Shown here piece by piece: positions 42,329 through 42,748 of a DNA stretch of 64,000 nucleotides. Below the pieces are notes generated by a model, which was given only the letters and a program-made list of their open reading frames with translations, was not told where the DNA came from and did no database searches. The position numbers were made by a program, and so were the translations under genes. The stretch comes from Melioribacteraceae bacterium (GTDB lineage Bacteria > Bacteroidota > Ignavibacteria > Ignavibacteriales > Melioribacteraceae): assembly GCA_019638015.1 (NCBI GenBank), contig JAHBUP010000001.1, positions 1,146,424 to 1,210,423 of the forward strand. Reading direction: 5' to 3'. Position 1 is the first letter of the stretch, and each line of letters begins with the position of its first letter.

Positions 42329-42400
42329 TCCGCGGTAGCTCAATGGCAGAGCATGCGGCTGTTAACCGCAGGGTTGTAGGTTCGAGCCCTACCCGCGGAG
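42329..42400 (+). tRNA. tRNA-Asn (anticodon GTT)
   Basis: Manual cloverleaf: acceptor TCCGCGG/CCGCGGA, D-arm GCTC-AATGGCA-GAGC, anticodon arm TGCGG-CTGTTAA-CCGCA, variable GGGTT, T-arm GTAGG-TTCGAGC-CCTAC, discriminator G. CCA is not encoded. Confidence 0.9.
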
Positions 42401-42402
42401 CA

Positions 42403-42435
42403 AAACCCCGACTCTTAGTCGGGGTTTCTCGTTTT
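42403..42435 (+). terminator. Rho-independent terminator after tRNA-Asn
   Basis: AAACCCCGAC-tctta-GTCGGGGTTT followed by CTCGTTTT. Confidence 0.8.
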
Positions 42436-42451
42436 AAATAAAAGGGGCAAT

Positions 42452-42712
42452 ATGTTTTATGTTTATGCACTCTTCTCATCAAAGTTTAATAAGATTTATG
42501 TTGGTCAAACAATCGATTTAGATAAAAGACTTATTGAGCATAATTCAGGACTTTCCAACTATACAAAACGATTTATGCCATGGAAGATTATCTACACAGA
42601 AAAAGTTGAAACCCGCACTGATGCAATGAAGAGAGAAAAACAATTGAAGAGTCAAAAAGGAAGAGAGTTTATTTGGAATCTTATTAGAAAAGAAAATATT
42701 TCAGGGTTGTAG
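42452..42712 (+). CDS. Small GIY-YIG (URI-domain) nuclease family protein
   Basis: MFYVYALFS...IYVGQT.DL.KRL.EHN, then a conserved R...E..LK..KGR. 86 aa, a single domain. Confidence 0.88.
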   Translation: MFYVYALFSSKFNKIYVGQTIDLDKRLIEHNSGLSNYTKRFMPWKIIYTEKVETRTDAMKREKQLKSQKGREFIWNLIRKENISGL

Positions 42713-42748
42713 GTTCGATCCGTTAGCTAACGGACTACCCATGGAACA
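42702..42748 (+). repeat. Degenerate duplicate of the 3' half of tRNA-Asn
   Basis: CAGGGTTGTAGGTTCGA (17/17 identical to 42369..42385), then the 16-nt palindrome TCCGTTAGCTAACGGA in place of the T-loop GC plus first T-stem C (GCC), then CTACCCATGGAACA versus CTACCCGCGGAGCA in the tRNA. Confidence 0.8.

Follow-up and report, generated by a model that had tools for sequence, protein, structure and literature searches.

How an enzyme of only 86 amino acids (aa), a hydrolase without a recombinase, could keep and spread its gene inside an essential locus is the question posed by a short segment at the tRNA-Asn gene of a Melioribacteraceae bacterium. We analysed a stretch of 64,000 nucleotides from this organism (contig JAHBUP010000001.1, positions 1,146,424 to 1,210,423 of the forward strand), hereafter called the window and numbered from its first letter. 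In it, an intact tRNA-Asn(GTT) gene is followed by an open reading frame (ORF) for a GIY-YIG nuclease and then by a partial copy of the tRNA that is interrupted by a 16-nt palindrome.

Our favoured reading, to which we give a probability of roughly 55%, is that this segment is the resident copy of a recurrent, recombinase-free cassette within tRNA loci, and that the cassette is a tRNA-embedded variant of the nuclease-hairpin pairing of the Ssn type. The cassette consists of an intact tRNA, a same-strand GIY-YIG gene of about 85 codons and, beyond that gene, a hairpin-tagged partial tRNA copy, the hairpin taking a position that corresponds to a cloverleaf loop. The cassette is probably selfish and maintained by recombination between the tRNA repeats, and by analogy with Ssn we read the 16-nt palindrome as the candidate recognition site of the nuclease. 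Full-text literature searches returned no description of tRNA-nested GIY-YIG cassettes, and in the literature searched the tRNA-embedded variant of the Ssn-type pairing had not been described before.

Anatomy of the cassette at tRNA-Asn

The tRNA-Asn(GTT) gene lies at 42329..42401 on the plus strand (ARAGORN; Rfam tRNA, 68 bits). It is the one tRNA gene of the window (ARAGORN, Rfam) and, in a census of 45 tRNAs, the sole Asn tRNA gene of the genome; therefore, the intact copy is essential. Next on the same strand comes a terminator-like element of the intrinsic type (42403..42437), whose hairpin at 42403-42427 has an 11-bp stem and precedes a T-run, and terminators of a similar kind stand after tRNA-Asn in related genomes. 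The nuclease gene (42452..42712, plus strand) encodes a single GIY-YIG domain of 86 aa (Pfam PF01541, E=5e-18), and its final three codons and stop (42710-42712) are encoded within the copied tRNA segment. The 5' arm of this partial copy (42702..42718, plus strand) corresponds to tRNA positions 41-57, with 17/17 identity to 42369-42385, and spans the variable loop, the 5' strand of the T-stem and the T-loop up to TTCGA. At this point the perfect 16-nt palindrome TCCGTTAGCTAACGGA (42719..42734), the hairpin of the nuclease clade, replaces the GCC of the T-loop. The 3' arm (42735..42748, plus strand), which comprises the 3' strands of the T-stem and of the acceptor stem, reads CTACCCATGGAACA where the tRNA has CTACCCGCGGAGCA; 3 of its 14 positions are mismatched, all by transitions. 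The resident copy has an intact ORF and an intact hairpin next to a decayed 3' arm.

A first-pass annotation of this DNA had placed the tRNA, its terminator, the 86-aa ORF, the 17-nt identity, the palindrome and the divergent acceptor strand correctly. It had also considered that the 17-nt match might stem from a bona fide second tRNA gene. Neither ARAGORN nor Rfam calls such a gene at the partial copy, and a permissive-E Rfam search around the cassette returned the tRNA alone, the hairpin and the partial copy matching no RNA family. A consensus scan located a promoter-like site, TTGACA-17-TATTTT, 5' of the tRNA (42278..42306, plus strand) and no comparable site between the tRNA and the ORF; by read-through, the same promoter probably drives the ORF as well.

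Integrase islands and prophages likewise leave an intact tRNA in front of foreign DNA, together with a direct repeat of the tRNA's 3' portion, and the first-pass annotation had allowed for the remnant of a larger island. On this account an integrase-borne island once occupied tRNA-Asn, the partial copy is its attR and the nuclease is leftover cargo. The repeat is indeed of the kind typical of tyrosine-integrase islands, and synteny beyond the cassette is broken. However, a Pfam search of the 10 neighbouring ORFs found no integrase, phage or transfer genes within ~7 kb, the neighbours are housekeeping-like and the G+C content is flat. Unlike an island, the unit measures ~350 bp and carries a hairpin in its repeat. 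Moreover, the same combination of ORF and hairpin is found beside other tRNAs, sometimes on their 5' side, as well as in tandem arrays, and no integrase was seen in the ~1.5-2 kb flanks of those loci whose sequence was inspected by eye, a dedicated integrase search not having been run. We consider an island scar extremely improbable and the least likely of all the explanations discussed here.

Recurrence of the cassette beside tRNA genes

The layout is beyond chance, since it recurs at other tRNAs of this genome and in dozens of other genomes, a recurrence for which the first-pass annotation had proposed to look. The 4.1-Mb assembly encodes five paralogs of the nuclease (38-51% identity). Four of them abut a same-strand tRNA (Asn, Arg-CCT, Leu-CAA and Ala-GGC), and hairpin-tagged partial copies are present at three of these four. 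At the Arg(CCT) locus, a 5' partial copy with a 21-nt hairpin in its D-loop is followed by the ORF and then by the intact tRNA. At Ala(GGC), the order is intact tRNA, ORF (with one stop codon) and a copy that runs from the D-loop to the 3' end, in which the 17-nt anticodon arm has been swapped for a 17-nt hairpin. The Leu(CAA) locus consists of the tRNA and then the ORF, a recognisable copy being absent. Altogether, 8/45 tRNA loci of this genome bear marks of the cassette.

We also noticed partial 5' copies that are hairpin-tagged and lack an ORF, just upstream of tRNA-Ser(TGA), Val(TAC), Ser(GCT) and one Met(CAT) of the same genome (contig C1:692188-692271, 1726008-1726050, 1817240-1817300 and 2845300-2845370). 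They look like footprints of lost cassettes.

Homologs were found in 38/41 genomes of the same order, with 0 to 13 per genome. Many of these homologs stand in tandem arrays (five units in G024, three in G040), and some of the ORFs contain stop codons and are pseudogenes. Our wider sample comprised 90 distinct homologous ORFs from ~90 loci, taken from the relatives and from public genomes of Bacteroidota, Patescibacteria, Cloacimonadota, Pelagibacterales and Gammaproteobacteria. A same-strand tRNA lies at most 260 nt away from 70 of them, against a by-chance expectation of ~1% (45 tRNAs in 4.1 Mb), and the ORFs without a nearby tRNA are mostly inner members of arrays or located at contig ends. 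The nine closest homologs (51-77% identity), which belong to nine genera and three families, all lie 3' of tRNA-Asn. Next in relatedness are Bacteroidota ORFs situated 3' of tRNA-Met(CAT).

A comparison of the phylogeny of the small GIY-YIG ORFs with their flanking tRNAs, which the first-pass annotation had put forward, revealed clear clustering. Mapped on the tree of the 90 ORFs, tRNA identity requires 44 changes versus 61 in shuffles, with 0/200 shuffles reaching so low a value; the tree rests on 87 columns and has many weak forks, so that its solid message is the clustering alone. Changes of tRNA do occur: an Asp-linked copy falls within the Asn clade, Val-linked copies stand beside the Met clade, and an Asn-linked copy from Cloacimonadota lies within the Met clade of Bacteroidota. 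Clades also differ in whether the partial copy precedes the ORF on its 5' side or follows it on its 3' side.

In one relative (L114; G019:C15:37846-38026), two tandem tRNA-Asn genes stand 35 nt apart with no nuclease ORF. This pair is possibly a precursor or a relic of the tRNA-ORF-tRNA layout.

The clade hairpin and its candidate nuclease

The first-pass annotation had described the palindrome as interrupting the copied T-loop. This interruption is not incidental; the palindrome is a conserved hairpin of the nuclease clade. A 16-mer of the form TCCG-NN-loop-NN-CGGA occurs within 200 nt of 35/44 clade ORFs versus 3/46 of the others (p=4e-13), the clade being the 44 of the 90 ORFs that include the one studied here. 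When TCCG-N8-CGGA was searched with no pairing demanded, which makes the outer TCCG/CGGA invariant by construction, both inner pairs were Watson-Crick in 24/28 distinct variants (chance 1/16), and CG, TA and GC pair types were all represented. Furthermore, other paralog clades are accompanied by other hairpins, such as CCTGCC..GGCAGG in the Arg clade and TCCCGC-TAA-GCGGGA in the Ser clade, the latter resembling the NTS core of Neisseria.

The position of the hairpin within the copied tRNA varies between loci. It follows TTCGA in the T-loop at the studied locus and at five others, replaces the whole T-arm in L013, replaces 10 nt between the D-stem and the anticodon loop in L015, L009 and L046, and stands in the anticodon loop after CTCATA in the Met clade. 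Pure hairpin insertions fall in the D-, anticodon- or T-loop in 13/13 cases, which represent about seven independent situations. In a Chitinophagaceae metagenome-assembled genome, hairpins of the TCCGCC..GGCGGA family with T-runs come directly after the tRNA and after the partial copy (L057:1976-1992 and 2320-2336), and the signature hairpin may double as a transcription terminator in some lineages.

The hairpin is also dispersed. In the genome under study, TCCGTTAGCTAACGGA or variants of it with one or two changed bases occur at ten other sites, all outside the window (C1:643452, 644765, 644862, 1105800, 1107158, 2003682, 2311965, 2317077, 2317124 and 2319307); that further copies of the palindrome might exist had already been suggested by the first-pass annotation. 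All ten cap a longer, REP-like hairpin, GTCATCYCGAG-[16-mer]-TCGAGRGATGA. The outer repeat is found in a short-loop form as well, GAGTTTATCGA. Arrays of the short-loop form (GTCATCCCGAG...CGAGGGATG) bracket the fifth paralog on both sides (C1:295745-295945, minus strand; locus L005, C1:294245-297445), which has no adjoining tRNA; these flanking repeats, also written GTCATCCC...GGGATG, are REP-like.

Of the 41 relatives, most lack the pattern TCCGTYRRCYRACGGA and ten contain about 8-40 copies of it, with the reversed control pattern giving 0 in every genome. Carriers of this nuclease clade have 10-40 dispersed copies of the hairpin. Hairpin-rich genomes make up 7/9 of those with an Asn-clade ORF (at least 55% identity) versus 3/32 of those without one (p=1.6e-4). 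The nuclease and a dispersed, clade-specific hairpin are thus observed together. The contexts of the hairpins in other genomes are mixed, some being nested in inverted repeats and many plainly intergenic; others sit in partial tRNA copies, namely in the T-loop of a tRNA-Met copy (G032) and in the D-loop of a tRNA-Ala copy (G038). The idea that the hairpin always nests in the loops of other hairpins was not generalised beyond the ten copies of the studied genome, because these constitute one composite repeat family and the contexts in G008 are mixed.

Three of the relatives (G036, G014 and G017) hold ~7-14 hairpins of the form TCCGTY..RACGGA and have no close Asn-clade nuclease. In these, the nuclease may have been lost or may be missing from the assembly, or else the hairpin may be recognised by a paralog that is more distant.

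In the nuclease protein, Y5, Y16, G18, R26, H30, E62 and K66 are invariant across 29 homologs and N31 nearly so, which settles in favour of intact catalytic residues a point that the first-pass annotation had singled out. The GIY and YIG motifs, the catalytic residues and the alpha/beta core that define the GIY-YIG superfamily are all present, and the AlphaFold2 model shows three strands plus helices with a pLDDT of 95.8. With 86 aa in one domain, the protein falls in the single-domain class of about 90-100 aa that lacks a separate DNA-binding domain. In fold, the model comes closest to BH0048, a UPF0213 protein, and to the nuclease domain of Slx1 (TM 0.65, root-mean-square deviation 1.5-2.2 Å), followed by the catalytic domain of I-TevI, and the UvrC core matches too. 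Proteins of the UPF0213/YhbQ type are also the best sequence matches among solved structures; for them, the literature searched gave no function or genomic context of the present kind. Slx1 is a structure-specific nuclease that needs Slx4 and has a zinc-finger domain, whereas the cassette protein has no zinc finger. The NCBIfam match to endonucleases of group I introns was weak and stayed below threshold, and the weak matches in PADLOC and PHROGs (for example PDC-S14, E=8.5e-5) cover only the generic GIY-YIG core.

Among characterised systems, the closest parallel is Ssn, a single-domain GIY-YIG nuclease of ~94 aa that binds a hairpin-forming repeat in single-stranded DNA and cuts just upstream of it (Chenal et al. 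2025, PMC11893778). The ssn genes are flanked by the NTS/SRM repeat, which is abundant in gene-carrying genomes, and tRNA goes unmentioned in that study (PMC11893778). Ssn and the cassette share a single-domain GIY-YIG protein of ~90 aa, a hairpin-forming inverted repeat with conserved arms and the dispersal of this repeat in carrier genomes. The fifth paralog even reproduces the classical repeat-gene-repeat layout of Ssn. In contrast to Ssn, the gene described here is lodged at a tRNA, its hairpin lies within a partial copy of that tRNA, and the hairpin sequence does not conform to the SRM pattern.

Pairs of a small nuclease gene and short, multiplying hairpins recognised in single-stranded DNA are likewise found in REP/RAYT systems and in IS200/IS605 'peel and paste' elements. 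The RAYT and IS200/IS605 enzymes belong to the HUH/Y1 transposases and act through covalent intermediates. A hydrolase of the GIY-YIG type is unable to rejoin DNA alone; therefore, any spread of the cassette must use host recombination or repair.

Maintenance, spread and competing explanations

The T-stem and acceptor stem of tRNA-Asn vary between genomes, and this variation reveals concerted evolution between tRNA and copy. In 5/6 loci of the T-loop type, the arms of the copy show no mismatch to the tRNA of their own genome, and 1-7 mismatches to the tRNAs of other genomes. The studied locus is the exception of the six, with a perfect 5' arm and three transitions in the 3' arm, and the DNA beyond its partial copy has no similarity to the trailer of the tRNA. 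Arms that match their own tRNA beside ORFs that have diverged point either to continuing gene conversion from tRNA to copy or to repeated regeneration of the copy. The first-pass annotation had interpreted the repeat by analogy with integrating elements, which bring a replacement 3' segment and leave the displaced original behind; this finds no support here. In most related loci the copy is kept equal to the resident tRNA by concerted evolution. What survives of that proposal is the minimal, integrase-free and tRNA-bound cassette with the nuclease as its sole cargo, with which the recurrence, the loci without it and the intact catalytic residues are consistent; its account of the palindrome and of displacement needs correction, and tRNA genes are putative targets of the nuclease itself.

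We propose the following route for the selfish, Ssn-like cassette. The ORF would be transcribed by read-through from the tRNA promoter, and the enzyme would nick single-stranded DNA beside the hairpin, that is, inside tRNA-homologous sequence. Such breaks could enter the homologous recombination of the host, with the intact tRNA and its partial copy as partners; this recombination would keep the arms equal to the tRNA and would yield tandem arrays, ORF-less footprints and clean losses. The conserved sequence of tRNAs may allow the cassette to enter, occasionally, the same tRNA gene of another genome and, rarely, a different tRNA. Both orders, with the copy 3' or 5' of the ORF, would result from a single crossover of a small circle carrying the ORF and the tagged tRNA fragment. 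Within this scheme, cleavage at the hairpin, action on single-stranded DNA and cutting as the driver of recombination or spread are inferred.

A bolder proposal assigns the targeting to the arms themselves. The cassette would then be a novel type of mobile element that dispenses with a recombinase. In single-stranded form, its hairpin-tagged partial tRNA copy would pair with the intact tRNA gene, whether in cis, on the sister chromosome or in a newly entered genome. The looped-out hairpin would serve as the handle bound by the bare GIY-YIG domain, the break would fall inside tRNA homology, and host recombination would install or amplify the unit. Such an element would be DNA-guided and structure-read, and would re-target by swapping its borrowed arms. 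Ssn enzymes do cut even when the two halves of their site are on separate strands (PMC11893778). Nevertheless, we regard this proposal as very improbable.

The cassette is present at some and absent from other copies of one and the same locus. A mutase gene upstream of tRNA-Asn is common to the studied genome and eight others. Behind it, the cassette is found in G000, G022 and G035, a footprint in G003, and an empty tRNA-Asn in G018 (with an identical tRNA), G015, G007, G014 and G031, so that the intact but cassette-free loci sought by the first-pass annotation do exist. An alignment of occupied and empty sites was not obtained, as the flanks of the cassette-free relatives are not alignable past the tRNA. 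A cold-shock gene follows tRNA-Asn in 8/13 truly empty loci versus 0/9 evaluable loci with a cassette or footprint, and the cold-shock genes of the studied genome are located elsewhere. Based on these counts, cassettes coincide with broken downstream synteny, although the loci are not phylogenetically independent. Where present (L091, L096, L098, L099, L102, L103, L105 and L115), the cold-shock gene begins 130-370 nt after tRNA-Asn and has a conserved long leader.

Presence and absence at a conserved target locus is also what one would expect of a free-standing homing endonuclease such as SegB of phage T4. Such an enzyme would cut the duplex of cassette-free tRNA-Asn, repair would copy the cassette in, and the hairpin would merely disrupt the spare copy of the target. 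GIY-YIG is a homing-endonuclease fold, and both the sub-threshold NCBIfam match and the place of I-TevI among the structural neighbours agree with this view, as does the clustering of tRNA identity on the ORF tree. SegB is encoded among the clustered tRNA genes of T-even phages and cuts a tRNA gene (PMC2330249), and its cut in the tRNA gene region drives its own inheritance as well as local amplification (PMC2330249; PMC13096335). Both systems thus have a GIY-YIG gene among tRNA genes. However, SegB is larger, possesses a DNA-binding part, is phage-borne, acts on the duplex of a competing genome and comes without a hairpin-tagged partial tRNA copy, and the similarity of the cassette protein to phage GIY-YIG proteins is generic only. 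The cassette protein is a catalytic core of 86 aa with no joined DNA-binding domain, and the occupied allele, which retains a complete tRNA-Asn next to the ORF, would not be immune to it. Moreover, the same hairpin accompanies the clade over different tRNAs, whether at the T-loop, the anticodon region or the whole T-arm, and it is dispersed away from tRNAs, unlike a mere spoiler of the target. Taken together, these observations make homing of the SegB type improbable.

The ORFs of the Asn clade are under purifying selection, as shown by a proportion of nonsynonymous differences (pN) of 0.15-0.33, far below that of synonymous differences (pS) of 0.6-0.88, at which synonymous sites are saturated. 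Being saturated between all sampled loci, the synonymous sites say nothing on recent transfer, and dN/dS was dropped as a clock for transfer and retained as a measure of constraint only.

Strong purifying selection would suit a domesticated module that benefits the host, in which nuclease and hairpin would, for instance, limit recombination or integration of foreign DNA at tRNA genes, or in which the hairpin-tagged tRNA fragment would act as an RNA element for processing or stability of the ORF transcript. Along the same line, three families of the order have retained the cassette at tRNA-Asn, a cellular effect is documented for Ssn/NTS, which limits transformation in Neisseria (PMC11893778), weak matches to candidate defence proteins exist (PDC-S14), and a role in RNA would also predict the covariation of the hairpin. 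On the other hand, the cassette is patchily distributed and absent from many loci of close relatives, and the pseudogenes, tandem arrays, ORF-less footprints and 0 to 13 copies per genome form a pattern of selfish birth and death. The PADLOC matches are restricted to the generic core, and a partial copy that lies 5' or 3' of the ORF depending on the clade is unfit for one RNA role. We therefore judge a host-beneficial module rather unlikely, although the competing explanations still deserve serious consideration.

Considering all the above results, several points weigh against the Ssn-like, selfish cassette that we favour. The published SRM pattern, HGTCWY..YYVSBRH..WNVSBRG..RNCYNB, occurs nowhere in the cassette and at only 3 places on the entire chromosome, and it matches neither the REP-like repeats nor those flanking the fifth paralog. 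By sequence, the nearest solved structures are UPF0213 proteins (1ywl, E=5e-7; 1zg2, 6e-5). On its own, the 51-nt stretch of the partial copy does not fold with exceptional stability (z = -1.3); the case for the hairpin is therefore made by comparative covariation and not by energy. No recent transfer is documented, and presence and absence may reflect loss alone. Phage and plasmid collections gave distant, generic GIY-YIG matches and no close relatives. Long-term purifying selection is equally expected of a host-beneficial gene. Finally, the tRNA in the occupied locus is intact, so that a logic of cutting the empty allele fails to explain immunity.

If the Ssn-like cassette is nonetheless confirmed, it would represent a large and overlooked class of minimal selfish elements in tRNA loci of Ignavibacteriota, Bacteroidota, Patescibacteria and other phyla, and would add a new habitat to those known for the nuclease-hairpin pairs of the Ssn type. 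Such a class would supply many natural pairs of enzyme and site for cutting single-stranded DNA, and would account for odd 'pseudo-tRNA' fragments, tandem mini-arrays and broken synteny near tRNAs that confuse annotation.

Beyond the partial copy, a weak terminator-like hairpin with a T-run occupies 42763..42787 on the plus strand. It has no significant similarity to the terminator after the tRNA, and the idea of a decayed second unit or a duplicated terminator at this place was rejected, the similarity not exceeding that of shuffles. The genes downstream encode an outer-membrane beta-barrel protein, a redoxin, a DUF6029 protein, an Omp28-like protein with a type IX sorting tail and a Crp-like regulator. 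Elsewhere in the genome, a second repeated 15-mer, TCCGCCTCTGGCGGA, is found at C1:3991182-4011306, C1:7644 and C16:3235 in the constant context cttgTCCGCC..GGCGGAga(a/c)gcggtcg. This 15-mer seems to belong to a family of repeated coding sequences or long repeats, and probably has no relation to the cassette.

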